This document shows, piece by piece, positions 1-11,438 of a stretch of 11,438 nucleotides of DNA; within the stretch, counting starts at the first letter, position 1, and every line of letters starts with the position of its first letter. The notes under the pieces are model-generated. The model was not told the DNA's origin, did not search any database, and was given only the letters and a program-made list of their open reading frames with translations. The stretch is from an uncultured Deferribacteres bacterium (GTDB lineage Bacteria > Zhuqueibacterota > Zhuqueibacteria > Zhuqueibacterales > Geothermadaptataceae), in NCBI GenBank assembly GCA_964014485.1, contig CAXHAT010000228.1, positions 1 to 11,438 on the forward strand, given 5' to 3'. A program made the translations under genes and the position numbers.

Positions 1-45
1 ACACCAAGAAGCTCGTCGGCAGCGTCAGATGTGTATAAGAGACAG
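1..45 (+). other. Illumina Nextera adapter contamination (end of P5 ACAC + 8-nt i5 index CAAGAAGC + TCGTCGGCAGCGTC + Tn5 mosaic end AGATGTGTATAAGAGACAG)
   Basis: Exact TCGTCGGCAGCGTCAGATGTGTATAAGAGACAG at 13-45, preceded by ACAC and 8 nt. It creates the artefactual 'MYKRQ' start of the 31..1278 ORF. Confidence 0.99.
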
Positions 46-1278
46 GAATTGCTGCGCACGCGCTTCGCCGAACCGGAGGGTTTGGAGAAATTTACCGAGG
101 CGCGCGAGCATTTTCAGGGATTGATCAAAAGCGGCCAGGCCGTGCTTTACGCCAGCCGCGAAACCGAGGAAGGACTGCGCCGCGTCTGCGTTGTTCCGCG
201 CGGCGAGGGCGGGCTTTTTCGCAAAAAAGAAGATTTCCAAATTCTCGCGGAAAAACTGGACGAAAACGCCGCGACAGTGCTGGAATTTCTGAAAGAAAAC
301 GGCGCTTCGTTTGGCCGTGATCTGATCGAAGGCACGGGATTGCCGAATCTGCAAGTGCAGGACGGTCTGCGCACGCTGGCGCAACGCAGTCTCGTCAGCG
401 CGGACGACGCGGAGACGTTTTTCGAATTTCTGCAACCAGCTTCAGCCGCGCCAACGCACGGCGATCAGCCGCCGGAACAGCCGTGGGCGAACCGCACGCA
501 AGGCTGGCAATCGATGGGCAGGCGGCGACCGACGCGCCACGAATTGCGGCAAAAAATTCAAAAATTATCGTCGATCAAGGACGTGCGCTGGTTTTTGACC
601 TCGTCTTTCGCGGCCTACGGCGCCGTTTTCGATGACAAGGAGCGCGCGGAACGTCAGGCGCGTCTGCTGTTGAACCGCTACGGCGTTTTGGTGAAGGAGT
701 GGTACCGGCGCGAAAAAGGCTTGCTGCCCTGGCCGCGTCTTTTTCAGGTTTTGAAGCGTCTGGAGTGGCAGGGCGAGATTCGGCGCGGCTATTTCATCGA
801 AGGACTTTCCGGCGTGCAGTTCGCATTGCCGGAAGCGGTCGAGCTTTTGCAAAAAATCAATGGCGCCGGGGCGAAAATTCCCGTCGGATCCGCGCTGGTG
901 AGCACGGCGGACCCGGCGCTGCCGTTCGGCGGATTCACGGATTGGGAAATCGTCGACCGCGAGGGCAAGCGCATCAGCGTGACGCGGCATACTTCAAATC
1001 ATCTTTTATTTGCGAACACTTTTCCGGTCGTTTATCTTGAAAATTTCGGTCAGCGCATCTGGTTCTGCCGCGAGTTTCAGGAGAAACGATTTGGGGATTT
1101 AATCGCCGCGCTCAAGAATTGGCTTTTGCTGCCGCCCAACCTACGTCCGCGCAGCAAACTGCAAGTTTCAAGCATTGACAATGTTCCTGCGGTTGCGTTT
1201 GAAAAAGCGGACGTTTTTCTGGAAAACGGTTTTGAGAAAAAAGGCGAGCAGTTGGTGTTGTGGCCGTCTGCGGTGTAA
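46..1278 (+). CDS. lhr: Lhr-family (large helicase-related) helicase, C-terminal winged-helix/AlkZ-like region; 5'-partial at contig edge
   Basis: ARLLLNRYGVL...LKRLEWQGEIRRGYFIEGLSGVQFALPEAVELL and STADPALPFG match conserved Lhr C-terminal motifs. The G-A-S-F...L HTH segment is also present. Genomic sequence starts after the adapter; TAA at 1276-1278. Confidence 0.88.
   Translation, partial: ELLRTRFAEPEGLEKFTEAREHFQGLIKSGQAVLYASRETEEGLRRVCVVPRGEGGLFRKKEDFQILAEKLDENAATVLEFLKENGASFGRDLIEGTGLPNLQVQDGLRTLAQRSLVSADDAETFFEFLQPASAAPTHGDQPPEQPWANRTQGWQSMGRRRPTRHELRQKIQKLSSIKDVRWFLTSSFAAYGAVFDDKERAERQARLLLNRYGVLVKEWYRREKGLLPWPRLFQVLKRLEWQGEIRRGYFIEGLSGVQFALPEAVELLQKINGAGAKIPVGSALVSTADPALPFGGFTDWEIVDREGKRISVTRHTSNHLLFANTFPVVYLENFGQRIWFCREFQEKRFGDLIAALKNWLLLPPNLRPRSKLQVSSIDNVPAVAFEKADVFLENGFEKKGEQLVLWPSAV
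1159..1278 (+). repeat. lhr 3'-end repeat, copy 1 (native tail, 40 codons including stop)
   Basis: Encodes LQVSSIDNVPAVAFEKADVFLENGFEKKGEQLVLWPSAV*; aligns without gaps to 3920-4039 and 5986-6105. Confidence 0.95.
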
Positions 1279-1300
1279 ATGTCAATTTTCAAAAGAGCGA

Positions 1301-1332
1301 AGATCGGATCAAGCGCAGCGAATCCGGCCTAC
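1301..1332. repeat. REP-like (GTAG-type) imperfect palindrome downstream of lhr; possible terminator function
   Basis: AGATCGGAT...ATCCGGCCTAC; the minus strand reads GTAGGCCGGATTCGCTGCGCTTGATCCGATC, resembling GTAGGCCGGAT REP sequences. Confidence 0.65.
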
Positions 1333-1475
1333 GTGATTTGGTATTGAACGAAATGAGCCGAAGAAGCGTTTTTTACAATAATCGCATAGGATTAGAAGCG
1401 CCGTGACAGGATAGTTCAATATTTTCAGCTTTACTGATTCGGGTTTCTTCATCATTAAAGAGAGAAACAGAGTTC

Positions 1476-3902
1476 ATGACACATTTTACTAGACGGACTG
1501 CAGCCGCTGTTTGCGCACTGCTTTTGTTTGCTTCGAGTTCATTCTTGAAAGGACAACTCAGCGAAGATTGGCCTGCTTGGGGAGGCCCAAACGGCAATTT
1601 TATTGTGAATCCCGGCGTTCTTGAAGCTGACCAGCCGGTACAACTAAAAGTCGCCTGGAAAAGAAAGCTGGGCTCCGGTTATTCGGCGATTTCCGTCACC
1701 AGTGACATAGCGGTGACGATGTACTCGGACAGCACTTTCGATTATCTTACGGCTTTAGATCCGGCTAACGGCGCGGAGCTGTGGCATTTTAAAATAGATT
1801 CAACCTTTCCCGGGCGCTTCGGCTCCGCAAACGGCCCAATTTCGACGCCGCTCATTTCACGAGACAGGGTGGTTGGTCTAAGTGCAGCGGGGCGGTTGTT
1901 CGCACTTAATCGTAAGAGCGGTAAGCTGGTTTGGGAAAGCGATCTGGCTGCGGATTTTGGTGCGCCGGAACCGTTTTACGGTTTCTCGACTTCGCCGCTG
2001 TTGTACAACGATATTTTAATTGTAGAAACTGGCGGGCTTTCTGAAAACGCGATTACCGCCTTTGATCCCGACAACGGGAAAGTGCTTTGGAGTGCGAAGA
2101 GTGATACGGTTGAATATCAGTCGCCTTACCTATTAAAAACCGGCGACGGCAATCAACTGATCGGGATCACGAACCGTTCGCTTTACGGCTTGCAGCCTGA
2201 GACTGGAAAGCAGTTGTGGAAATACGATCATGGCGGCAACAATCATCCAATGGGAGCGTCAAGCGGCAATCTGGTGCATCTTGGCAACAATCAATTTTTC
2301 TTCAAAAACAAAGAAACAGGCGGGAAATTGCTTAGCCTGGATTATGCAGGGGAGGTCTACCAGGTCAACGAAGTTTGGCAAACGACGGATATTAAAGGCA
2401 CTTATATCATTCCGGTTTATCACGACGGCTATATTTACGGCTACAACAGTCGAATTTTTGTTTGCGTTGACGCTCAAACCGGGAAGCGAGTCTGGCGTTC
2501 ACGCGCGCCGGGAGACGGTTTCCCGATTATCGTTGATAATCATCTGGTCGTGATCACAAAGAGCGGTAAGCTAAGCATCGCGCCCGCTTCACCGGAAGGT
2601 TATCAAGAAATCGCCAGTATAGAGCTTCTCGACAATCTTGTCTGGACGCCTGCTAGCTTTGCTCATAACCGATTGTTTCTGAGAAGCTTTACGGAAATTG
2701 CCAGCGTGGAAATCGCACCTTCTGAAATTCTTGCCCGCGCGGAAGAAGAAGCAGTCGGGGTTGTACCCAATTCAAAATTTGCAAAGTTTGTTAAACAAGT
2801 TGAAGGCGCAGAAGAAAAGCAAAAGCTTGTTGAAGAGTTCATGCAAGGGCAGGAGACGTTTCCGGTGATCGAAGGAGACGACGTCGTTCATTTCGTGTGC
2901 CGGGCGGAGGCGCAGGATATGGCTTTGATGAGCGATTTAATCGGCTGGCGAACTGATCGCCCTATGCATCGCGTCGCCGATACGGACTTGTTCTATTATT
3001 CGTCCCGATTGGAGCCCGACGCACGCTTGAACTATAAATTTATGAGAGATTTTCAAGCGCGCCATGTTGATTCCCTTAACGCGCGGCGGCACGGTTCGAT
3101 GTTTTACGGCTTCACGTCCTGGTTCAACATGCCGAAATGGAAAAACCCTGATTATCTCGAAGCTTCGGGAGGATTAACAGGCCGTATCGATTCGCTTCAA
3201 TTCAAGAGCGTAAAGATTGACAGCGCGCGCATGATCGAAGTCTATCTGCCGGCCGGATACGATGACTCTAAAAAAGATTATCCGGTTATTTATCTTCACG
3301 AAGGCAGGCTTGCTCGTGCATTGGGGAATGTTAAGACGGCTTTGGATAATTTGATCGGTCGGCAAATTCAACCCGTCATTGTCGTTTTCATGCCGTCTTT
3401 TTATGGGGATTCGTATGAAGAAATGATTGGCGGAAACAGGGATGCTTACGCAGAAGTGTTTGTCGAAGAGATTTTACCGAAAGTTGAGACGATGTATCGC
3501 GTGCGATCTGGCGCTCAAAACCGACTGAATATGGGAAATAGCTTTGGCGGATTCATGGCTTTCTATACGACATTTAAGTATTCCGAACTCTTCGCGAATT
3601 TTGCGGCTCAGTCGATGTACTGGGATGAAAAACTCGGCAAGCGGTATGCTTCATTGATTTCGCCAAACGCCTCAAAAATGAAAAAAATCTACTTTGGCTG
3701 GGGTAAGTACGATTTTAATAGTCCGTTTGAAAGTATCAATATCATTGAGACAAGCCGCAAGGTGGCGAACTTGCTGCAATCGCGCGGATACGAATTTGCG
3801 GGCGGCGAGGCGAATTTAGGCACAGGTTGGACAAACTGGAAAACCCGCCTCGACGAAGTTCTAACGACGTTTTTTCCGCTTTCGGATGGTGAATCAGAAT
3901 AG
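1476..3902 (+). CDS. Secreted PQQ-like (BamB-type) beta-propeller fused to an enterochelin-esterase (Fes)-like Ig + alpha/beta-hydrolase domain
   Basis: 808-aa ORF with N-terminal signal peptide (RRTAAAVCALLLFASS). DWPAWGGPNGN start and repeated A(L/F)D..xG...W propeller motifs. C-terminal VYLPAGYD...YPVIYLHEG and GNSFGG nucleophile elbow. Confidence 0.85.
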   Translation: MTHFTRRTAAAVCALLLFASSSFLKGQLSEDWPAWGGPNGNFIVNPGVLEADQPVQLKVAWKRKLGSGYSAISVTSDIAVTMYSDSTFDYLTALDPANGAELWHFKIDSTFPGRFGSANGPISTPLISRDRVVGLSAAGRLFALNRKSGKLVWESDLAADFGAPEPFYGFSTSPLLYNDILIVETGGLSENAITAFDPDNGKVLWSAKSDTVEYQSPYLLKTGDGNQLIGITNRSLYGLQPETGKQLWKYDHGGNNHPMGASSGNLVHLGNNQFFFKNKETGGKLLSLDYAGEVYQVNEVWQTTDIKGTYIIPVYHDGYIYGYNSRIFVCVDAQTGKRVWRSRAPGDGFPIIVDNHLVVITKSGKLSIAPASPEGYQEIASIELLDNLVWTPASFAHNRLFLRSFTEIASVEIAPSEILARAEEEAVGVVPNSKFAKFVKQVEGAEEKQKLVEEFMQGQETFPVIEGDDVVHFVCRAEAQDMALMSDLIGWRTDRPMHRVADTDLFYYSSRLEPDARLNYKFMRDFQARHVDSLNARRHGSMFYGFTSWFNMPKWKNPDYLEASGGLTGRIDSLQFKSVKIDSARMIEVYLPAGYDDSKKDYPVIYLHEGRLARALGNVKTALDNLIGRQIQPVIVVFMPSFYGDSYEEMIGGNRDAYAEVFVEEILPKVETMYRVRSGAQNRLNMGNSFGGFMAFYTTFKYSELFANFAAQSMYWDEKLGKRYASLISPNASKMKKIYFGWGKYDFNSPFESINIIETSRKVANLLQSRGYEFAGGEANLGTGWTNWKTRLDEVLTTFFPLSDGESE

Positions 3903-3913
3903 AATGAACGGTG

Positions 3914-4039
3914 AGCGTACTACAAATTTCAAGTATCGACAACGCTCCAGCGGCTGCGTTTAAAAAAGCGCGCGTTTTTCTGGAAAACGGTTTTGAGAAA
4001 AAGGCCGAGGGTTTGGAGTTGTGGCTGTCGGCAGTGTAA
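3914..4039 (+). repeat. lhr 3'-end repeat, copy 2 (displaced gene tail; open frame GTG 3911..TAA 4039)
   Basis: 3920-4039 differs from 1159-1278 at 20/120 nt by hand count, no indels. Encodes LQISSIDNAPAAAFKKARVFLENGFEKKAEGLELWLSAV*. Similarity continues past the stop (CAATTTTCAAAA; AATCCGGCCT). Confidence 0.93.
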
Positions 4040-4062
4040 ATTACAAACAATTTTCAAAAAAA

Positions 4063-4093
4063 CAGGCCGAATTACGCATCGCAATCCGGCCTG
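4063..4093. repeat. REP-like hairpin homologous to 1301-1332; likely terminator between convergent units
   Basis: CAGGCCGAATT-N9-AATCCGGCCTG inverted repeat; shares AATCCGGCCT with the hairpin after lhr. Confidence 0.7.
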
Positions 4094-4136
4094 AGTAGTT
4101 GTTATCCGCTATAAACGGTTGTCGGCTTTTAAAAAA

Positions 4137-5807
4137 TCACTCAGGATCTTTTCGGACATAACATGCGACGCCTTCATAGGCGTATCCGTTAGCTCCGTTG
4201 CGCAGCTCGTTCCAGTTAATCGTGTAGTAATGATCTCCTCCCACAGAGTGCCAATATCGATGAAGCGGCACAGTACTCCTTTCCTGCTTCGGGAATACAT
4301 AGCATTCGATCCCTTCATATATCCAGCCGCCCCCGCCTCCGCCTAACTCGCTTTTATCGGTTGTATAGAAGTGATCATCTATGCCTGAATGATAATAACG
4401 ATGCAACCCAACTGTCTTGTCTCTCTTTTCGCTGTAAACATAACATGGCACACCGAGGTAAGCGTATCCCCATTGCCCAGGTGAAAGCGCATTTTTCTTG
4501 ATTGTATAAAAGTTGTTTCCAGGACGCCACCAACGGTAGAGGGGGACTGTTGGTTCCAGAACGGTAACTCTTCTAACTTCGACATTATTCGTTTCATTGG
4601 TTTCATCAACGTCGCCATGAACGTCGATTCTTGCTAGCGTGTCAAACTTTCCGGATTTTTTATATGTGTGGTGCAAAGATACTGTTGTAGACTTTCCGGC
4701 TTTCAGCCCGGGCACAACGGAAGGTTTGCCGGGGTTGCCGGAATGGTAGTCCCAGCGAACGGTAAATTTACCGACGTCCTTGTTGCCCTGATTTTTTACG
4801 ATGATCTTCGCTTCCGTATTTCGATTCTTGATCGGCAGAATCGGATTCAGTATGAAGCGCGTGATCATCAAGTCCGCTGTTTTGGGAGGCTCTTTATGGC
4901 GGATTCGAACAATAGCGCTCGTTTCATCCTCACCGTCATCATAGTTCAACTTAATGGCTGCGCTGCCCCGCGGCGCTGTGAAGCCGTTTAAGTCGACGAC
5001 AAGATGGTCTTCGGCGGACGCCTTAATTGAGATTTCTTTGTCAGCGATGGTTACTTTCGGCTGCTTGCCGTCCGGGAGCAGCGATTCGCCGATAATCTCC
5101 AACTCGTCAGTTTCGCCGACCAGGATATCGTCCGGGAAAAGATACAGGATACGCGGTTTTTGATCGACAACTTTATCCAGCCGTGCTTTGAGGCCGACGC
5201 CGGTAAATTTCATAACCCAAGCTCTAACCTTAGGAACGATCGCCAATGAGCCAAACACGAGCAGGTAAGCGCCCATCAAGGAAAAAACCAATATACGCGT
5301 CAGCCCTTCCGGCGCGCCTTCCTTAAACAGAAACCAGATAAAACCGAACATGCCGACGCCCAGCAGTATGAGCGAGATCACCAAAATGAGATTATACATC
5401 GCACGATCAAGAACGTAAACCGCCGTTTCCCCTCCAACAACGATGATGTTCTTGACCCTCTTTTCAAGATCAATAGCTATATCCTGGATTTGCATGCTTA
5501 TCTGATCGATAAGCCCTTCCGCTGCATTTTGAATGTTGCCGATGACTTCCGTTTGAATCCTGTTGAGAACGCTCTGCAGCTCCAACAGCTTGTTGCTTGT
5601 CGCGTCATCGAGACTGTCTAATGTAATCCCCAAATTCTCTTGATAAGTCTGGCTCAAGTCTTCAACAAGAGCGTTGAGACTGTTTTCCAGTTGCAAGAGC
5701 CTCTGGCGAACGGCTTCGTTGGCTTCACCAACGACTTTGCTGATCTGGCGGCTTATGGATTTCGCGCCGGAAACCAATCCCCCTATTGTGGCTGCTAAAA
5801 ATAACAT
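4137..5807 (-). CDS. Membrane protein: N-terminal helical/coiled-coil region, two TM helices, IPT/TIG-like Ig domain, CARDB-like domain, C-terminal DUF5648-like repeats
   Basis: 556-aa ORF with AAGGA RBS. Hydrophobic segments LILVISLILLGVGMFGFIWFLF and ILVFSLMGAYLLVFGSLAIV. ADLMIT...VKNQG...ETNETNN is a CARDB pattern. Three (P/G)L(Y/H)R(W/Y)...(DH/NN)(F/Y)YT...Y(E/L)G..CYV repeats. Confidence 0.82.
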   Translation of the reverse strand: MLFLAATIGGLVSGAKSISRQISKVVGEANEAVRQRLLQLENSLNALVEDLSQTYQENLGITLDSLDDATSNKLLELQSVLNRIQTEVIGNIQNAAEGLIDQISMQIQDIAIDLEKRVKNIIVVGGETAVYVLDRAMYNLILVISLILLGVGMFGFIWFLFKEGAPEGLTRILVFSLMGAYLLVFGSLAIVPKVRAWVMKFTGVGLKARLDKVVDQKPRILYLFPDDILVGETDELEIIGESLLPDGKQPKVTIADKEISIKASAEDHLVVDLNGFTAPRGSAAIKLNYDDGEDETSAIVRIRHKEPPKTADLMITRFILNPILPIKNRNTEAKIIVKNQGNKDVGKFTVRWDYHSGNPGKPSVVPGLKAGKSTTVSLHHTYKKSGKFDTLARIDVHGDVDETNETNNVEVRRVTVLEPTVPLYRWWRPGNNFYTIKKNALSPGQWGYAYLGVPCYVYSEKRDKTVGLHRYYHSGIDDHFYTTDKSELGGGGGGWIYEGIECYVFPKQERSTVPLHRYWHSVGGDHYYTINWNELRNGANGYAYEGVACYVRKDPE

Positions 5808-5910
5808 TTATTTACTATCCTTTTATTTTAAAGCATTGATTGCTTGATTTTTTTTGCGCGCGGCCGCTGCGCTTATTTCCCTATGACGATAGTATTTTGT
5901 TTCTGTCCCA
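5808..5910 (-). promoter_or_regulatory. Shared promoter/leader copy A: TGGGA-N18-GTCA (ECF-sigma-like) followed by GC hairpin, A-tract and RBS
   Basis: Minus strand has TGGGA (5910-5906), an 18-nt spacer, GTCA (5887-5884), then AATAAGCGCAGCGGCCGCGCGCAAAAAAAATCAAGC (5877-5842), 32/36 identical to 8738-8703. Confidence 0.65.
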
Positions 5911-5979
5911 TTTTGCTCCGTCTTCTTTCAAAGGGAAGCGTATGATAAGCGGATTTTTCCGGGAGTCGTGCAATTAGAG

Positions 5980-6105
5980 AGCATGGTGGTTCGATCGAGC
6001 ATTGATAATGCCCCCGCGGCAGAGTATGCAAAAGCGGGCGTTTTTGGGGAGAGTGGTTTTGAGAAAAAAGGGGAGCCGTTGGTGTTGCGGCCTTCGGCGG
6101 TGTGA
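5980..6105 (+). repeat. lhr 3'-end repeat, copy 3 (displaced gene tail; open frame ATG 5983..TGA 6105)
   Basis: 5995-6105 differs from 1168-1278 at 22/111 nt by hand count, no indels. Encodes MVVRSSIDNAPAAEYAKAGVFGESGFEKKGEPLVLRPSAV*. Confidence 0.9.
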
Positions 6106-6133
6106 ATTCCAAGCGGCAAATTTTAGATGAGAA

Positions 6134-6163
6134 AGTAGAGACGCGACGCATCGCATCTCTACT
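6134..6163. repeat. GTAGAGACG...CTCTAC REP-like palindrome; likely terminator/stabiliser for the convergent astacin gene
   Basis: AGTAGAGACGCGA-CGCA-TCGCATCTCTACT, a 13-bp stem with one mismatch and GTAG/CTAC ends. Confidence 0.75.
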
Positions 6164-6174
6164 GGATTATTTAT

Positions 6175-8274
6175 TTATGCGGGAACGGGTTCTTTGTGAT
6201 TGGCTGTTTCCGGAGTCGGTTCCAGAACGGCGAATCCGTTGCCTTCGTCTTCATCAGATTGCTCGGCGGAAGTTTCTGCGTCAAAAACAGCGCCGCCGGA
6301 CTCGTCTTGCGATTCAGGCTCAGTTTTTTCGGATTCGGCCATGACAATTCCGCCCTGGCTTTCTTCCGCTGCCGCCGTTTCAGCATCGGCGCTTTCCTGA
6401 ACGCCTTCTACAAAACCGCCAAACGCTTCATCAGCGCCGTCTTCGGTAATCGCGTCCGCTTCGATGAATTGTTCCGCTTCAACAGCAGCTTCAACTTGGG
6501 TCTTCTCACCGTTTGCCGCGATTTCATCTTCACCAAAAATGCCGCCGTAGCCGTCTTCCGTTTCATTATCAAATGCGGCGTCAAAATCGGCGTCTTGCAG
6601 TTTTGGCGCAGAAGCTGAAACGTCATAGGAAGGTCCGCTGCCGGTATGGATGAATTCATAATCGATCAAGCGCAATCCCTTCTGACCAAGTTGTTGCCAC
6701 TTGGCGCGGAAGTTTTGCCAGGTGACGTTCGCCCAGAGATAGTAGCCGCCGCCGCCGCTCATGAAAACGCCGGAGTAGCGATTCTGACCATTCACGCGGT
6801 GAACATTCATGTCGACCAGGCGCAAACCTTGCCTGCTCCATTCGCGCCATTTGGCGACAAAGCTGCTCCAGGTGACGTTCGCCCACAAGCCGTAGCCGCC
6901 GCGTCCAGGGAGCCAAACGCCGGAGTAGCGATTTCGCCCGTTAACCGTATGGACGTTAATATCGACCAAGCGCAAGCCTCGTCTCGACCATTCGCGCCAC
7001 TTTGCGACGAAACTGCTCCAGGAAGCGTTGACCCAAAGGCCGTAACCGCCGCGCCCCGGCAGCCAAACGCCGGAATAGCGATTCTGGCCGTTGACATGAT
7101 GCACGTTCATGTCCACAAGGCGCAGGCCTCTGCGGCTCCATTCCTGCCATTTCGCATGAAAACTGCTCCAACTGGCGTTTGCCCAAAGACCATAGCCGCC
7201 GCTTCCAGGCATCCAGACGCCGGAGTAGCGCGTACTGCCGAAACGATGATGCACGTTCAAATCGGTAAGCCGCAGGCCTTGCGCCGCCCATTGTTGCCAT
7301 TTGTTTCTAAAACTGCTCCAGGAAGCGTTCACCCAAAGACCGTATCTGCCGTTCGCTTGTTTCCAAACGCCGGTGTGACCTTTTTTGAAGAAGCGCTCAT
7401 ACATTTTGGCGTTCGAAAGGCGGTCGCCGAAGCTGAGTGCGCTCCTTTGGCCAATGGTCACGCCGCTTTGCAAGGGAACGATGGTCGGCTGACCGTTGGT
7501 TGAAAACGCCCACGTCGGGTAGTGCATGATGGAATCGTAGTCATATTCATAATAGTCGGTTGCGCTGAGCCGCTTTTGAAAATTGCTTTCAAAGCCGGGG
7601 GTGATGTTCTGCCAGTTGATGGTAACGTAACTGTCGCGATCCGAGCGTGATTGTTCGTGATAATGGCCGAAAGCATGGCCGATTTCATGAATAACGGTTC
7701 CGGCGCTGGCGGCGTCGGAGACGCGAATCAACTGTCGTCCGCCGCGCATGCCGATGCGTGACGAGCTCCAGTTGGCGTTTGGATTGCGAACGAACTCGAC
7801 ATAGTTCGGGTAAGAAGCGGCGTTGGCGGCGGTTCTTTGAACAAGGCGCATCCCGGTGTTTATCGTCCAATGTTGAATAGCTTGCGTAACGCGGTTTTGG
7901 TTCGGCAAATTGCTGTTAATGACGTAAGGCATCACGCCGTTCGTCCAAAGATATGCCGAATTGCGCGGCAACCCGACGCCTTGCAGGACAACATCGCTGC
8001 TTGAGCCTGCGTCCGCTTCTGCCGGAATCCCGTTGTCAGACGCGCTGGCTTGTTGGCTCGCACGAATGGCGGCGGTTTCCCGTTCAACTTCCTCGGCGGT
8101 TCCCAACTCAACGCACCCTTCACAGAGCGCGATTCCGTTAGAGACCACGTATTCAACGGGCTTGTTGGTAACGCCGGGGCCGGAAAAAAATCCGGTCTTG
8201 ACCTCGACTTTGCTCTCCGGCGCTTCGTTTTCAATTTCGCCGGCTTGAATTGTCTCCTGAAATTTCTTGCTCAT
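6175..8274 (-). CDS. Astacin-family (M12A) zinc metalloprotease with propeptide, five BTRD1/polyglycine-hydrolase-like repeats and an acidic C-terminal tail
   Basis: HEIGHAFGHYHEQSRSDRD (HExxHxxGxxHE..RxDRD) and YDYDSIMHY Met-turn. Repeats read W..F..KW.EW...GLRL.D...RYSGVW. AAGGAG RBS; no signal peptide visible. Confidence 0.92.
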   Translation of the reverse strand: MSKKFQETIQAGEIENEAPESKVEVKTGFFSGPGVTNKPVEYVVSNGIALCEGCVELGTAEEVERETAAIRASQQASASDNGIPAEADAGSSSDVVLQGVGLPRNSAYLWTNGVMPYVINSNLPNQNRVTQAIQHWTINTGMRLVQRTAANAASYPNYVEFVRNPNANWSSSRIGMRGGRQLIRVSDAASAGTVIHEIGHAFGHYHEQSRSDRDSYVTINWQNITPGFESNFQKRLSATDYYEYDYDSIMHYPTWAFSTNGQPTIVPLQSGVTIGQRSALSFGDRLSNAKMYERFFKKGHTGVWKQANGRYGLWVNASWSSFRNKWQQWAAQGLRLTDLNVHHRFGSTRYSGVWMPGSGGYGLWANASWSSFHAKWQEWSRRGLRLVDMNVHHVNGQNRYSGVWLPGRGGYGLWVNASWSSFVAKWREWSRRGLRLVDINVHTVNGRNRYSGVWLPGRGGYGLWANVTWSSFVAKWREWSRQGLRLVDMNVHRVNGQNRYSGVFMSGGGGYYLWANVTWQNFRAKWQQLGQKGLRLIDYEFIHTGSGPSYDVSASAPKLQDADFDAAFDNETEDGYGGIFGEDEIAANGEKTQVEAAVEAEQFIEADAITEDGADEAFGGFVEGVQESADAETAAAEESQGGIVMAESEKTEPESQDESGGAVFDAETSAEQSDEDEGNGFAVLEPTPETANHKEPVPA
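6650..7380 (-). repeat. Intragenic tandem repeat, five units of 150 bp (50 aa)
   Basis: ACGCCGG anchor at 6767, 6917, 7067, 7217 and 7367, an exact 150-nt period. Confidence 0.95.
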
Positions 8275-8321
8275 CGTGAACTCCTTTTTATGCAGGTATT
8301 CATACGCCGCAGAGATTTGCT

Positions 8322-8669
8322 CTAAATTCTGCTTACGAGAACATCCTGCTGTGCGGGTTTTGCAGCCAACCGTTTTAACGAATGAATTGAGGTGGTTAGA
8401 TAATCTCCGGGGGTGAGGTCGCCGTCACCGTTCACGTCAACGTGGACGCGCAGTGATAAATCCGCATCAGGCGCTGAAGGCGGAAAATCGACGGAAGCGT
8501 GGAAAATCGCCGGGTCGCTTTCAACCGAAACATGGTAAAGATGATTTTCCGAGAGCGTTTTTGATGGAGCGCCGGCTTCTGAAATATCCTCGATGTAAAT
8601 GTGTACGTTGGCGTCCGGCAAGTTCGTTTCCAAGTTATCAAAATGAATGGCGACCTCGAGTCGATTCAT
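8322..8669 (-). CDS. YbaY/YscW-like small beta-sandwich protein lacking a lipoprotein signal; first gene of an operon with the astacin
   Basis: LPDANVHIYIEDISEAGAPSKTL resembles YbaY-type LP..A.v.v.l.D.S.ADAPS. It also has LSLRVHVDVNGDGDLTPGDYLTT with a DxNxDG Ca-binding-like loop. GGAG RBS; 47 nt gap to the astacin ATG. Confidence 0.7.
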   Translation of the reverse strand: MNRLEVAIHFDNLETNLPDANVHIYIEDISEAGAPSKTLSENHLYHVSVESDPAIFHASVDFPPSAPDADLSLRVHVDVNGDGDLTPGDYLTTSIHSLKRLAAKPAQQDVLVSRI

Positions 8670-8770
8670 GGTTTAGCTCCGTAGTTTCGAAAATATCGAT
8701 TGGCTTGTTTTTTTGTGCGCTCGGCCGCAGCGCTTATTCTTTCTGACAACGGTGAGTAGCCATTCTCCCA
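8670..8770 (-). promoter_or_regulatory. Shared promoter/leader copy B: TGGGA-N18-GTCA followed by GC hairpin, A-tract and RBS
   Basis: Minus strand has TGGGA (8770-8766), an 18-nt spacer, GTCA (8747-8744), then AATAAGCGCTGCGGCCGAGCGCACAAAAAAACAAGC (8738-8703). It ends 34 nt from the ATG versus 35 nt in copy A. Confidence 0.65.
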
Positions 8771-8954
8771 CCTTAACTATTGTGAGATTGGAAGATGATT
8801 ACAACGCGCTTCCAATCGTTTTGGCTTGATTGCTGTTTAAGACCATCAACGAGGGCGCTTTTCGAATTCAGCGCGTTCTCAAAGCTGAGACGGTAGAAGA
8901 AATGTCGGCCGTGAAATCATCTTCGGAAGGGCTGTTTTAGGGCGGGAGCAGACA

Positions 8955-9009
8955 ATAAATTGGGGAGCGCGCACATCGGCGGCTGTAGTGGGGCGTGACC
9001 TCAATTTAT
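8955..9009. repeat. Imperfect inverted repeat, probably a degenerate REP-type pair
   Basis: ATAAATTGGGG (8955-8965) pairs with CCTCAATTTAT (8999-9009), with weaker inner pairing. Confidence 0.5.
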
Positions 9010-9097
9010 GCTGACCACATTTACAAATTATTGCCCATGGAAACCGAAATATTTTTTTTGAGTAAGCGCAAAAAAACGGCGAAGTTTTAAACTGTGC

Positions 9098-9127
9098 GGC
9101 AGAGACGCAACGGATCACGTCTCCGCC
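9098..9127. repeat. Degenerate GTAGAGACG-type REP hairpin downstream of the CTD fragment gene
   Basis: GGCAGAGACG-N10-CGTCTCCGCC; same AGAGACGC core as 6134-6163. Confidence 0.6.
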
Positions 9128-9139
9128 AATACACTCAAA

Positions 9140-9800
9140 TTACTTCATAAGCAAGAGCTTCTTCTGTGCCGTGAATTTCCGGCCAACTGTGATCGTGTAG
9201 AGATAAAGTCCGCTGGCCACAGGCGCGCCGGAGTCATCCCTTGCATCCCAGGTCACTCGGTGTATACCGGGCGTGTAATCGCCGGAAACCAGCGTGCGCA
9301 CGAGCTGTCCCGCATTGTTGTAGATGTTCAGCGAAACATTGCCTGCTTCGATCAGATCAAACTGAATCGTTGTTGTCGGGTTGAACGGATTCGGATAATT
9401 CTGATGCAGGGCAAACTCCGTCGGCAGACTCTGATCATTGTTCATTGCTGATTGATCATTGAAAGCCGCCGCTTTCGGATTCTGGCAGCGATCCAGGGCG
9501 CTGCAATAGTCTTCCCAGGCTTTTCTGTAATCTTTGATCGCGTCGCCGAAGTAGTCTTCGCCGTATTCCGCGTCGCCGTCCGCGAGATCGTCTTCGACGT
9601 CATCGGCCATTTTGCCCGTCGGATCAGGATCGCATTCGAGCGCTTGTTCCCTTTTCTCCAAAGCAATGTGTCGGGCGAGATCGGCCAGGGTGGAAGCAAT
9701 CGGGTCGGTGCCTTCCATCTCTTCACGGGCTTCTTCGAGGGCCTCGGCGGCGTCGCGCATGGCGTTGAGCATGTCTTCGATTCCGCCCTCTCCTTGCAGC
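9140..9800 (-). pseudogene. Probable 5'-truncated remnant of a secreted protein: helical domain plus FlgD-Ig/T9SS type A sorting-like C-terminal domain
   Basis: LPTEFALHQNYPNPFNPTTTIQFDL...VSLNIYNNAGQLVRTLV...WDARDDSGAPVASGLYLY...KKLLLMK is a typical CTD. No signal peptide is present. The ORF-track start (9856) lies inside the upstream gene's terminator; the next ATG (9772) has no well-spaced RBS. Confidence 0.65.
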
Positions 9801-9820
9801 GAAATTCGGGTGAACTCCCG

Positions 9821-9857
9821 AAAAAAATGAGCCTGACGATGAATCGCCAGGCTCATT
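9821..9857 (-). terminator. Intrinsic terminator of the beta-helix lipoprotein gene
   Basis: Minus strand AATGAGCCTGGCGA-TTCA-TCGTCAGGCTCATT runs into a T7 tract, ~22 nt after the stop codon. Confidence 0.88.
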
Positions 9858-11007: not shown

Positions 11008-11371
11008 CTCCCCCTCTTGAAACTAACCTTTACCCATAAGTCTGGGCAAATGTACAGCTCCAAAGGAGCGGGATGGAATAGCGAAGGGCGAAGCCCTGGA
11101 AATCCGAGGCAATTTTGTTTTCACAAAGCCCTGAAAGGGCGAAATAAATCGCCGTCTTGGCTTCGACGCTGCATTATGCCGCCCTTTCAGGGCTTTGAAG
11201 AAGGCGCTGGGCGCTCATTTTCCAGGGCGTTGCCCTTCGCTATTACATTTCGCCCTTTCAGGGCTTTTTTCAAACCACCCAACCCAACTTATGGGTAAGG
11301 GGTAGTTCGAAGGGGGGCGGGGGGATGTTTGAAACTGTTGCATTTTCGCCGACGCCCAAAAACATCCTCCC
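11008..11371. repeat. CCCCCT..GAAGGGGGG / GGGGGATGTT...AACATCC REP-like doublet, interrupted by the MITE-like element
   Basis: Removing the insert rejoins CTCCCCCTCTTGA with AGGGGGGCGGGGGGATGTTT. GGGGGATGTTT pairs with AAACATCCTCCC at ~11360-11371. Confidence 0.5.
11021..11307. mobile_element. 287-bp MITE-like non-coding element with 21-bp terminal inverted repeats and internal GCCCTGAAAGGGC palindromic repeats
   Basis: TIRs AACTAACCTTTACCCATAAGT (11021-11041) and ACTTATGGGTAAGGGGTAGTT (11287-11307) match 19/21. Internal IR pairs at 11077-11102/11219-11244 and 11125-11141/11180-11196, with a further copy at 11251-11267. Confidence 0.7.
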
Positions 11372-11438
11372 AACCCGGACAAGCCGGAACCAATCAGAAG
11401 CGATCATTCAATCTCATGACTTAACGCAGAGATGCAAA

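Follow-up and report, generated by a model that had tools for sequence, protein, structure and literature searches.

In the prophages e14 and 21 at icd, and in cis-mobilisable elements (CIMEs) beside ICEs, the 3' end of a gene is replaced by a diverged incoming surrogate, the old end stays behind as a downstream repeat, and tandem accretion follows. The minimal mobile elements of Neisseria represent a slot between conserved flanks, in which whole-gene cassettes vary by strain and are exchanged by transformation and homologous recombination. C-terminal displacement arrays at Rhs loci were reportedly described by Jackson and colleagues in 2009, and insertion of RM genes with long target duplication is said to have been described by Nobusato and colleagues in 2000 (Gene 259:99). 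For the RM insertions, Furuta, Abe & Kobayashi give repeat lengths of 46-423 bp, no mobility genes, and repeats that often lie across start or stop codons (2010, PMC2853133). Displacement arrays of effector and immunity genes at Rhs/T6SS loci are the subject of Kirchberger et al. (2017, PMC5361080). In E. coli conjugation, examined with a view to homology-facilitated illegitimate recombination, Amarir-Bouhram et al. assign 56 of 60 recombinants to a single crossover of a circular molecule, and all 14 sequenced clones carried a 109-950 bp duplication of the homologous segment (2011, PMC3240628).

Here, we describe an lhr locus whose 3' end is followed by two further copies of the lhr tail, each accompanied by cargo genes. 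The window, i.e. the whole stretch of DNA analysed, comprises 11,438 nucleotides. We consider it probable, if well short of certain, that the region records two additive, homology-anchored insertions, one after the other, at the lhr 3' end, and does not constitute a working system. The locus consists of the following features.

46..1278, plus strand: 3' part of lhr, its last ~410 codons (Pfam WH4_Lhr, 1.1e-26; NCBIfam ATP-dependent helicase PRK09751, C-terminal part)
1153..1285, plus strand: tail 1, the lhr tail now used, with the last 41 codons and stop TAA at 1276-1278 (reference copy of repeat family D2)
1286..1330, no strand: hairpin 1, a weakened homologue of hairpin 2 (the homology of tails 1 and 2 extends to 1330/4092)
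1476..3902, plus strand: cargo 1, an 808-aa PQQ beta-propeller and esterase protein with an N-terminal signal-like sequence (Pfam PQQ_2 1.7e-28, Esterase 6.5e-21)
3914..4046, plus strand: tail 2, a displaced lhr tail, in frame, stop TAA at 4037-4039 (repeat search and genome-wide blastn)
4063..4093, minus strand: hairpin 2, a terminator-like stem-loop with a 14-pair stem and then a T run, behind cargo 2
4137..5807, minus strand: cargo 2, a 556-aa CARDB and DUF5648 protein (Pfam)
5822..5915, no strand: leader A, which lies upstream of cargo 2 and shares homology with leader B, with its core at 5835-5877 (blastn and alignment)
5916..5979, no strand: putative joint of unit 2 and tail 3 (placed from the anatomy)
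5980..6112, plus strand: tail 3, a displaced lhr tail, in frame, stop TGA at 6103-6105 (repeat search and genome-wide blastn)
6135..6162, no strand: hairpin 3, located behind the astacin gene, a 28-nt palindrome whose family occurs genome-wide (27-37 nt matches on ~50 other contigs)
6175..8274, minus strand: cargo 3a, a 699-aa astacin metalloprotease with four BTRD1 repeats (Pfam Astacin 1.7e-41, BTRD1 5.5e-29)
8322..8669, minus strand: cargo 3b, a 115-aa protein, weakly YscW/YbaY-like (Pfam YscW, E 0.007, below cut-off)
8682..8775, no strand: leader B, the upstream region of cargo 3, core 8695-8738, with no lhr tail after it (blastn and alignment)

The lhr gene is split across contigs, its 5' part lying at the start of contig C106. 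Residues 3-499 of a relative's Lhr correspond to C106:1469-6, and residues 500-908 to C228:31-1275, C228 being the contig of the window. Bases 1-45 of this contig are sequencing-adapter-like. The repeat finder defines a 133 nt family of three copies, in which tail 2 is 82% and tail 3 75% identical to the reference, tail 1. By genome-wide blastn, tails 1 and 2 share 78.7% identity over 178 nt (1158-1330 vs 3919-4092, hairpin included), tails 1 and 3 share 80.5% over 113 nt, and tails 2 and 3 share 73.7% over 118 nt; the longest identical runs of these pairs are 30, 17 and 14 nt, respectively. The lhr frame is kept in all three tails, with the stop at a homologous position in each. Tail 2, which starts 12 nt from the stop of cargo 1, matches the Lhr tail at 76% over 41 aa. 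The conserved LVLWPS motif, present as L[V/I/L]LWPS in 12/12 relatives, is intact in tail 1; it carries V>E and P>L changes in tail 2 and a W>R change in tail 3. For tails 2 and 3, no ribosome-binding site or start was seen. The 8.4-Mb genome (465 contigs) holds no further tail copies by blastn, and no fourth tail follows leader B: in local alignments of the three tails against 8740-9145, scores did not exceed those of shuffles except for the hairpin family. The GC3 of lhr falls from ~0.7 to ~0.5-0.57 near base 950, a drop consistent with a gene end of donor origin that extends beyond the repeat, but too noisy for use.

Units 2 and 3 have both ends, the tail and the leader, in common and differ in their cargo, the encoded proteins being unrelated (BLASTP E 0.16). 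The leader cores (5835-5877 vs 8695-8738) are 86% identical over 44 nt (E=7e-7, genome-wide blastn), with weaker similarity beyond the core (about 5822-5915 vs 8682-8775). The leader pair is unique to the contig, without copies elsewhere in the 8.4-Mb genome. Folding energies distinguish hairpin 2 (-23.4 kcal/mol, z -3.95 vs shuffles) and hairpin 3 (-20.9 kcal/mol, z -3.66), and hairpin 1 and both leader hairpins fold no better than shuffles. Paralogues of cargo 1 in the genome are at most 34% identical, and cargo 2, cargo 3a and cargo 3b have none there. The GC3 of cargo 1 is 0.52, compared with 0.68 in the lhr body. Cargo 3a scores 244.7 bits against the NCBIfam LegP-like model, under the cut-off of 300. 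No Rfam match lies within 1159-8770, PADLOC gives no match to defence genes among the cargo, and Pfam finds no integrase family among ten scanned ORFs of the window. None of the genome's eight PF00589 matches is on the lhr contig, which ends at 11438, 2.7 kb past leader B.

In these respects, the preliminary description holds. Its anatomy, gene order and content are borne out by the repeat finder, blastn and Pfam; its reading of tails 2 and 3, in frame and with homologous stops, as displaced lhr ends is supported, as is the serial stacking of units at lhr that it proposed. The window is free of a recombinase gene, as it had stated. Genome-wide blastn, which it had suggested for the tail and the leader, confines both to the lhr contig, and neither is scattered.

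The same footprint is present at other genes of the genome. Scans of 4687 frames of at least 250 aa, covering the whole genome, returned 21 further repeat pairs at 19 other loci, which are known from the metagenome assembly. At these loci, the last 90-339 nt of a gene (median 165) recur downstream on the same strand with the stop retained, at a distance of 169-6407 nt (median 862). Frame and stop are retained in 21 of 22 pairs, and the R1 end lies no more than ~20 nt from the stop in about 18 of 22. The parent genes are unrelated and encode ValRS, UvrC, NuoF, an AcrB-ABC fusion, an acyl-CoA dehydrogenase, a sigma-54 activator, MacB/FtsX permeases, T9SS proteins and Lhr. Their repeats have no motif in common (top 8-mer in 3/21 repeat regions, shuffle mean 3.0), and the scanned inserts of the other loci contain no integrase or recombinase family. 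This recurrence behind 19 other, unrelated genes speaks against the special, lhr-tied slot of the preliminary description. Displaced tails predominate over displaced heads (28 vs 9 repeat pairs), with a long gene in one head case only. A second three-tail array is located on C35, in the order aminotransferase, Phd/YoeB, tail', four genes, tail''.

At 13 loci, the cargo is a toxin-antitoxin (TA) or TA-like pair, of the types RelE/HTH, BrnT/A, Phd/YoeB, PIN/RHH, HicAB, HEPN/MNT, DUF433/DUF5615 and DUF4160/DUF2442. Direct repeats of 80-400 nt bracket 11 of 55 toxin-family matches, compared with 620 of 20000 random intervals. Sharing of T9SS domains and tandem paralogues were removed by requiring that the copy sit in a short frame or be a truncated, high-identity C-terminal fragment; C49, C21, C155 (14479-19076), C212 and C138 were set aside as such cases. 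The genome-wide fragment scan yielded no C-terminal fragments of 140-290 aa. The DGR loci C1 and C343 were likewise removed from the counts. A DGR (VR/TR) origin was rejected for lhr itself, where only 12/32 and 3/22 mismatches fall at adenines of the downstream copy; in the genuine DGR pairs of the same genome, the corresponding values are 19/22 (C343, with bAvd) and 18/19 (C1). Genes for Ku, ComEC and DprA are present in the genome.

We postulate that, in each event, a DNA segment from a related lineage entered the cell, starting inside the donor's own lhr tail and extending through the donor stop codon, the terminator hairpin and the gene or genes adjoining lhr there. Integration would then proceed via homology with the resident lhr locus, most likely by a single (Campbell-type) crossover of a circularised fragment or, alternatively, by homologous exchange at only one end, the other being closed by an illegitimate joint. 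Such an event would leave the lhr frame complete, with an extra full tail and everything behind it now downstream. Ordered from the newest, which would adjoin lhr, the units probably run from unit 1 (tail 1 and the PQQ/esterase gene) to unit 2 (tail 2, hairpin, 556-aa gene and leader A) and then to tail 3 with the astacin operon and leader B. The model places at 5916..5979 the joint at which an incoming fragment would have closed into a circle. Integration of a circularised allele of the entire locus beside the resident one would give units 2 and 3 a common tail and leader, and these shared ends around unrelated cargo lend support to the homology-driven integration of relatives' alleles that the preliminary description had offered as one of two routes. 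An element-encoded recombinase would be unnecessary, as host RecA-type recombination and end joining would suffice; a Ku gene is present. The same process may have acted behind at least 19 other genes, mostly leaving TA modules, and an addiction module would guard an insert between direct repeats against looping out. Two observations sit uneasily with this model. The lhr tails are 74-82% alike, with the short identical runs given above (30/17/14 nt), and would be poor RecA substrates. The narrow repeat size (90-339 nt, with no fragments of 140-290 aa) is a feature for which the model does not account.

The substitution pattern between copies bears on where the second tail came from. A true long target duplication, in which the copies arise in situ at insertion (by staggered breaks, by template switching in replication or by a break that the cargo drives) and then diverge in place, seems to us unlikely, even if the class was named for it (PMC2853133). 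An identical start and drift of one decaying copy would give a pN/pS of about 0.55 or more. Pooled over the 21 non-lhr pairs, Sd is 297.2 and Nd 200.8, corresponding to a pS of 0.357, a pN of 0.072 and a ratio of 0.20 (z -11.4), and the lowest pairs reach 0.06-0.13 at a pS above 0.5 (C44, C125). The three lhr tails show higher ratios, 0.33-0.40, at ~20 differences per pair. Among the changes private to tails 2 and 3, which are enriched in synonymous ones, 19 of 37 are nonsynonymous, compared with a neutral expectation of 0.70-0.77 (p 0.013-0.0006). In favour of duplication in place, the private branch of tail 1 is the shortest (6 changes vs 14 and 23 in the other two tails), LVLWPS is damaged in tails 2 and 3 only, and a mechanical constraint may be reflected in the narrow size range of the repeats. 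Because the differences are mostly synonymous, we infer that the paired tails are alleles of different lineages rather than duplications in situ, an attribution of foreign origin drawn from substitution patterns alone. The lhr case, taken by itself, is compatible with partial in-situ decay, given its ratio of 0.33-0.40, its ~20 differences per pair and the 1 synonymous and 4 nonsynonymous changes on the lineage of tail 1.

The available relatives are distant from this genome. Among 41 genomes, the best match to the Lhr C-terminus is 51% identical (tally 29/41, G016 and G023 included), the nearest genomes being 45-51% identical in this part of Lhr, and a metagenome scan added three lhr loci at 37-43%. 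Neither a donor, nor an empty site, nor a close relative was found in the 41 genomes and the one metagenome scan. All 12 relatives with comparable loci carry one lhr tail each and are too distant to count as empty sites. Downstream of their lhr genes, neither a tail copy (best chance matches E 0.007-0.68) nor any cargo gene of the window is present, a T9SS/FlgD_ig C-terminal domain being all that is in common.

A second alternative regards the units as integrase-less satellites, comparable to CIMEs accreted beside ICEs or to phage 21 and e14 at icd. The lhr tail would serve as att site, and a recombinase of the tyrosine or serine type, encoded elsewhere, would stack and excise the units. Tandem tails beside a restored gene are the classic sign of 3'-end integration, the genome has its eight PF00589 matches on other contigs, and the contig breaks off 2.7 kb beyond leader B, so that a recombinase might lie past its end. 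Against these points stand the lack of a recombinase in the window, the run of at most 14 nt shared by tails 2 and 3, which might still leave room for a short core after decay, and the scanned inserts, in which no integrase family occurs. Furthermore, 19 unrelated genes with no motif in common would require ~20 specificities. We regard such satellites as improbable, and the dedicated trans-acting recombinase of the preliminary description is disfavoured by the same footprint behind unrelated genes.

That the extra tails are retained for a function, for instance to insulate or terminate the convergent cargo genes or to supply spare C-termini when Lhr is switched by recombination, appears very improbable. 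The frames and stops kept in nearly all pairs would fit such a role; young copies that derive from working genes would be just as likely to have kept their frame. Against it, tails 2 and 3 have non-conservative changes at positions that do not vary among the 12 relatives, and the ribosome-binding site and start are missing.

The arrangement of the region is supported by a separate assembly. Logan contigs span the passage from cargo 1 through tail 2 to cargo 2 (3702-4213) and that from cargo 2 through leader A and tail 3 to the astacin gene (4224-6392), each with 0 differences, and the junction of cargo 1 and tail 2 is also bridged by contigs from two more samples of the same study. The junctions are bridged in three samples of one study, the only study in which the sequence is present. 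The contig joints listed start at 45-52 (adapter) or within the repeats 9166-9277 and 11148-11217; tail-to-tail joints are absent from them, as far as contigs, which drop rare variants, can record such joints. Chaining of alleles from co-existing strains into a single contig is hardly credible even for a 465-contig MAG that is known from a single study and whose lhr contig opens with adapter-like sequence, as the Logan contigs cross both inner junctions without a difference, one of them in two further samples, the copies are 18-26% diverged and not collapsed repeats, and chimeric joins would need a long word shared by insert end and gene at about -150 nt at 20 loci.

Beyond the homology-anchored insertions proposed for lhr, a wider reading is conceivable, which we put forward tentatively and regard as doubtful at present. 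The "long target duplication" would be no duplication at all, and instead the scar of a general, recombinase-free transfer cycle between related genomes. Small modules consisting of the last ~150 nt of a conserved gene and a passenger would integrate by a single homologous crossover in the tail and be held when the passenger is addictive (TA or RM), and the circle looped out between tails would start the next round. The lhr array would then represent two turns of this cycle, which might be a main route of spread for TA modules without mobility genes.

The movement of TA, RM and similar small modules of a defensive or selfish kind from one chromosome to another, with no mobility gene of their own, has long been a puzzle. 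Insertion with long target duplication is the one footprint described, and has stood without a mechanism for 25 years. Some twenty clean cases, all at housekeeping genes, are found in this genome, and two of them are stacked arrays. The ratio of synonymous to nonsynonymous differences between repeat copies provides a simple, transferable test of origin, and in the present sequences it speaks for a "duplicate" that came from a relative, as an allele captured through homologous recombination. Should the same be true of complete genomes, any conserved gene end could be a landing pad, and addictive cargo would explain the persistence of such unstable structures.

Compared with the known systems, the locus differs from the icd prophages and CIMEs in that these use an element-encoded integrase and one site, whereas here many unrelated targets are found without an integrase; no recombinase adjoins the units up to the contig end at 11438, and there is no single target sequence. 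With their tail and leader flanks, units 2 and 3 agree with the slot picture of the Neisseria minimal mobile elements. In those elements, however, cassettes are replaced and not stacked, and the flanks are not duplicated. An integron cassette array was considered and rejected, the contig being without an integrase and the repeats being coding gene tails and not attC-like palindromes.

The Rhs/T6SS arrays (PMC5361080) resemble the locus in their incoming DNA, which homology anchors in a conserved gene, in the old 3' end that is pushed downstream and kept, and in being free of integrases. They differ in that their displaced ends are variable toxin domains with immunity genes, this variation being what matters there, whereas the tails here are orthologous and the novelty lies in the passenger DNA. 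A C-terminal displacement array was rejected for lhr, as its tails share homology with each other and with the Lhr tails of relatives, and the cargo does not consist of tip and immunity pairs. The E. coli single-crossover system shares with the locus a heterologous insert, flanks of duplicated homology and independence from a site-specific enzyme; it is a laboratory plasmid with identical homology, in contrast to the natural, 71-98% identical repeats found here.

The closest counterpart is the RM class, and the preliminary description's "undescribed system" has in this respect a described precedent, at least as regards the insertions with long target duplication set out for RM genes in PMC2853133. 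TA modules flanked by duplicated gene tails are not described in the literature searched. Like the RM class, in which direct repeats exceed 30 bp, the lhr inserts have direct repeats of 133-178 nt that span the stop, with no integrase in the window. On both sides, a small unit without mobility genes is flanked by direct repeats of considerable length (46-423 bp in the RM class, 90-339 nt in this genome). The neighbouring gene is kept whole where these repeats cross the stop, as they often do, and the cargo is a selfish, addictive module, here in the form of TA loci. In contrast to the RM class, the cargo of this genome comprises TA modules and ordinary secreted enzymes, with no RM unit by Pfam and PADLOC, and a single gene can carry a stack of two or three events. 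Finally, the copies here differ mainly synonymously, which points to the capture of a relative's tail rather than the duplication of the target.

The 3' end of lhr occurs three times in the window. A repeat finder returned a single family, 133 nt long, whose three copies lie at 1153-1285 (tail 1), 3914-4046 (tail 2, 82%) and 5980-6112 (tail 3, 75%). All three tails keep the lhr frame, with the stop codon at the same position in each, and the homology of tails 1 and 2 extends past the stop through the hairpin, to 1330 and 4092, respectively. The gene order, annotated with Pfam, is as follows.

1-1278, plus strand: C-terminus of Lhr
1476-3902, plus strand: PQQ-propeller/esterase protein (cargo 1)
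4137-5807, minus strand: CARDB/DUF5648 protein, 556 aa (cargo 2)
6175-8274, minus strand: astacin/BTRD1 protein, 699 aa (cargo 3)
8322-8669, minus strand: weakly YscW-like protein, 115 aa (cargo 3)
last in the gene order: two T9SS-type genes

Tail 1 and cargo 1 form unit 1, while units 2 and 3 run from their tails to leaders A and B, the upstream regions of both minus-strand cargo operons. The leaders share a core of 44 nt (86%; 5835-5877 and 8695-8738) and weaker similarity across about 95 nt. As the preliminary description had stated, units 2 and 3 are thus homologous at both ends, and their cargo proteins are unrelated. The genome-wide check that it proposed found no further copy of tail or leader in the whole genome outside this contig, and no tail remnant lies behind leader B. 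Its hairpins hold behind tails 2 and 3, where strong stem-loops (z -3.95 and -3.66 against shuffles) sit in terminator position for the convergent cargo genes, but hairpin 1, like the small GC palindrome of the leaders, folds no better than shuffles. Downstream of the astacin gene, hairpin 3 (6135-6162; also about 9100-9125) is an almost perfect palindrome of 28 nt with family matches on some 50 other contigs; the family is probably one of REP-like elements or of terminator hairpins. On the NCBIfam LegP metalloprotease model, the astacin protein reaches 244.7 bits, short of the cut-off of 300. Its C-terminus is acidic, it contains four BTRD1 repeats, no signal peptide is visible by eye, and the genome has no paralogue of it. 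The 238-aa FlgD_ig/T9SS-tail protein at 9140-9856 is a member of a large family, represented by 88 tblastn segments across the genome; many of these are 65-78% identical, and they often lie in tandem (C138, C212, C68, C49).

The metagenome-assembled genome comprises 8.4 Mb in 465 contigs, and the window is one whole contig. Its start falls within lhr, the 5' part of which forms the start of contig C106. Positions 1-45 resemble a transposase-library adapter, so that some 15 codons at the beginning of the open frame do not belong to lhr. Run X1 has a depth of ~487,000 in the first bin, and bases 45-52 are a meeting point for many unrelated contigs. GC3 within lhr drops from ~0.7 to ~0.5-0.57 at ~950-1278, ~200 nt upstream of the repeated tail, a shift that could be the trace of a recombination breakpoint within lhr. 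The contig end (11011-11317) contains nested inverted repeats and three sub-threshold Acido-Lenti-1 RNA matches (24.5-29.1 bits; gathering score 37); given its raised depth and the presence of variants, it is probably a repeat that broke the assembly.

The proposed tandem array of three in-frame tails is real. The sequence was found in one study. Logan contigs, a separate assembly, cross both inner junctions with 0 differences, spanning 3702-4213 (from cargo 1 through tail 2 and its hairpin into cargo 2) and 4224-6392 (from cargo 2 through leader A, tail 3 and its hairpin into the astacin gene). The junction of cargo 1 and tail 2 is crossed by contigs from two further samples. Furthermore, the tails have diverged by 18-26% and are therefore not collapsed repeats.

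The same footprint occurs elsewhere in the assembled genome. From each stop-to-stop frame of 250 aa or longer (4687 frames) we took the last 45 aa and looked for a nearby copy in a short frame, then mapped the repeats at the DNA level and repeated the search with 300-aa C-termini. Once paralogues, T9SS domains common to several proteins and two genuine DGR pairs had been set aside, 21 more repeat pairs remained, at 19 loci other than lhr. The repeated gene end spans the last 90-339 nt (median 165), and its second copy lies in the same orientation 169-6407 nt (median 862) further downstream. In the DNA-level mapping set, the end of the first copy is no more than about 20 nt away from the stop codon in about 18 of 22 pairs, and only 1 of 22 copies has an internal stop. 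Displaced 3' tails outnumber displaced 5' heads by 28 to 9 repeat pairs, with a long gene in only one head case. A second stacked array with three tails, on contig C35, reads aminotransferase, Phd/YoeB, tail, four genes, tail. The parent genes are mutually unrelated: valyl-tRNA synthetase, UvrC, NuoF, a class-III aminotransferase, acyl-CoA dehydrogenase, an AcrB-ABC fusion, a sigma-54 activator, a GMC oxidoreductase, MacB/FtsX permeases, EamA, BatA, a Sortilin/BNR protein and T9SS proteins. Tail duplication is hence a genome-wide footprint and not an lhr-specific system. With no recombinase gene found in the inserts and no k-mer beyond chance common to the 21 repeat regions, its occurrence behind unrelated genes speaks against the suggested cassette system with a trans-acting recombinase.

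Several other repeats were observed. The DGR pairs (C1:109171-112268 and C343:687-3915) have mismatches at template adenines in 18 of 19 and 19 of 22 cases and pN/pS above 1; on C343 the two repeats enclose a bAvd gene. At C95:12004-12233, a MITE-like element of ~230 nt with internal inverted symmetry and more than 100 genome copies sits between a gene tail and its displaced copy. In two of the tail-duplication loci, on C93 and C368, the stop codon is immediately followed by a palindromic repeat of ~120 nt, whose family also has copies on C131, C316, C150, C144, C27 and C38.

Thirteen inserts carry toxin-antitoxin (TA) or TA-like pairs: RelE+HTH, BrnT/BrnA, Phd/YoeB, PIN+RHH (several), HicA/HicB, HEPN+nucleotidyltransferase (two), DUF433/DUF5615, RelE/ParE and DUF4160/DUF2442. 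Others hold DUF3800, an MFS/beta-eliminating-lyase block, unknown genes or a small repeat element alone. Direct repeats of 80-400 nt at most 3.5 kb apart bracket 11 of 55 matches to four toxin families, compared to 620 of 20,000 random intervals. The G+C content of the TA-carrying inserts is 40-47%, against 50.2% for the genome. Just past two displaced tails lie a HicA, partner and zinc-ribbon gene cluster (C5:22630-23480) and a second DUF433 gene (C91:6897-7220), neither with its own flanking repeats, which gives the impression that TA-like modules accumulate at these gene ends.

Duplication of the target in situ, followed by free drift of one copy, starts from identical copies and predicts a pN/pS of ~0.55 or more. 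Individual pairs range from 0.0 to 0.41, and the 21 non-lhr pairs pooled give 0.20 (Sd 297.2, Nd 200.8, pS 0.357, pN 0.072; z -11.4 against 0.55), which argues against this explanation. Some pairs are near synonymous saturation yet have hardly any replacements (C44: pS 0.53, pN/pS 0.06). Both tails of a pair thus diverged while they were working gene ends, and the sequences are best read as alleles of different lineages, recently brought together. This excess of synonymous differences supports the homology-driven integration of relatives' alleles put forward earlier. The lhr tail pairs have higher ratios (0.40 and 0.33), and the displaced tails carry non-conservative changes in an L[V/I/L]LWPS motif conserved throughout 12 relatives, indicating that they have begun decaying. 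Even so, among changes private to tails 2 and 3, only 19 of 37 are nonsynonymous, against a neutral expectation of 70-77% (p 0.013-0.0006). As their longest identical runs are just 30, 17 and 14 nt, the lhr tails are now poor recombination substrates. Searches of other genomes and of metagenomes, together with the regions downstream of lhr in 12 relatives, revealed neither a donor nor an empty site, and no close relative.

We postulate that a DNA fragment from a relative, starting in its own gene tail and passing the stop into its own neighbouring DNA, would use the tail as homology for integration. The fragment could circularise and insert by a single crossover, necessarily leaving a tail on both sides. 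In an E. coli study, single crossover of circular DNA was the main outcome (56 of 60 recombinants), with duplications of 109-950 bp in the 14 clones sequenced (PMC3240628). Alternatively, homologous exchange at one end could be combined with an illegitimate joint at the other, as has been suggested for the displacement arrays of T6SS and Rhs loci (PMC5361080). We favour circularisation for the lhr array because units 2 and 3 share tail and leader: a circularised whole-locus allele inserted beside the resident one would produce both, with 5916-5979 as the closing joint. Unit 1 would be the newest. The genome encodes Ku, ComEC and DprA, making end joining and DNA uptake at least possible. An insert between direct repeats should be easily looped out unless its loss kills the cell, which may account for the excess of TA cargo. 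The 300-aa search found no displaced fragments of 140-290 aa in this genome, and the narrow range of repeat sizes is unexplained by capture.

Compared with the defining features of site-specific integrative elements, integrons, DGRs and Rhs-type arrays, the lhr region fits none of these classes. Nobusato et al. reportedly described insertion with long target duplication for restriction-modification genes in 2000. In Furuta et al. 2010 (PMC2853133), it is defined for such genes by direct repeats of 46-423 bp without mobility genes; the repeats often span a start or stop codon, the species are mostly competent and the mechanism is left open. The lhr array and the 19 loci match this footprint, which does not support the initial suggestion of an undescribed system; the array is better seen as a variant within a class of event that is known, if obscure. 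The literature searched yielded no description of TA modules with the tail-duplication footprint. The main value lies in the genome-wide pattern and in the mechanistic clue from synonymous divergence. In contrast to the restriction-modification class, the cargo here consists of TA modules, plus ordinary secreted enzymes at lhr, insertions are stacked, and quantitative evidence suggests that the apparent duplicate is a foreign allele.
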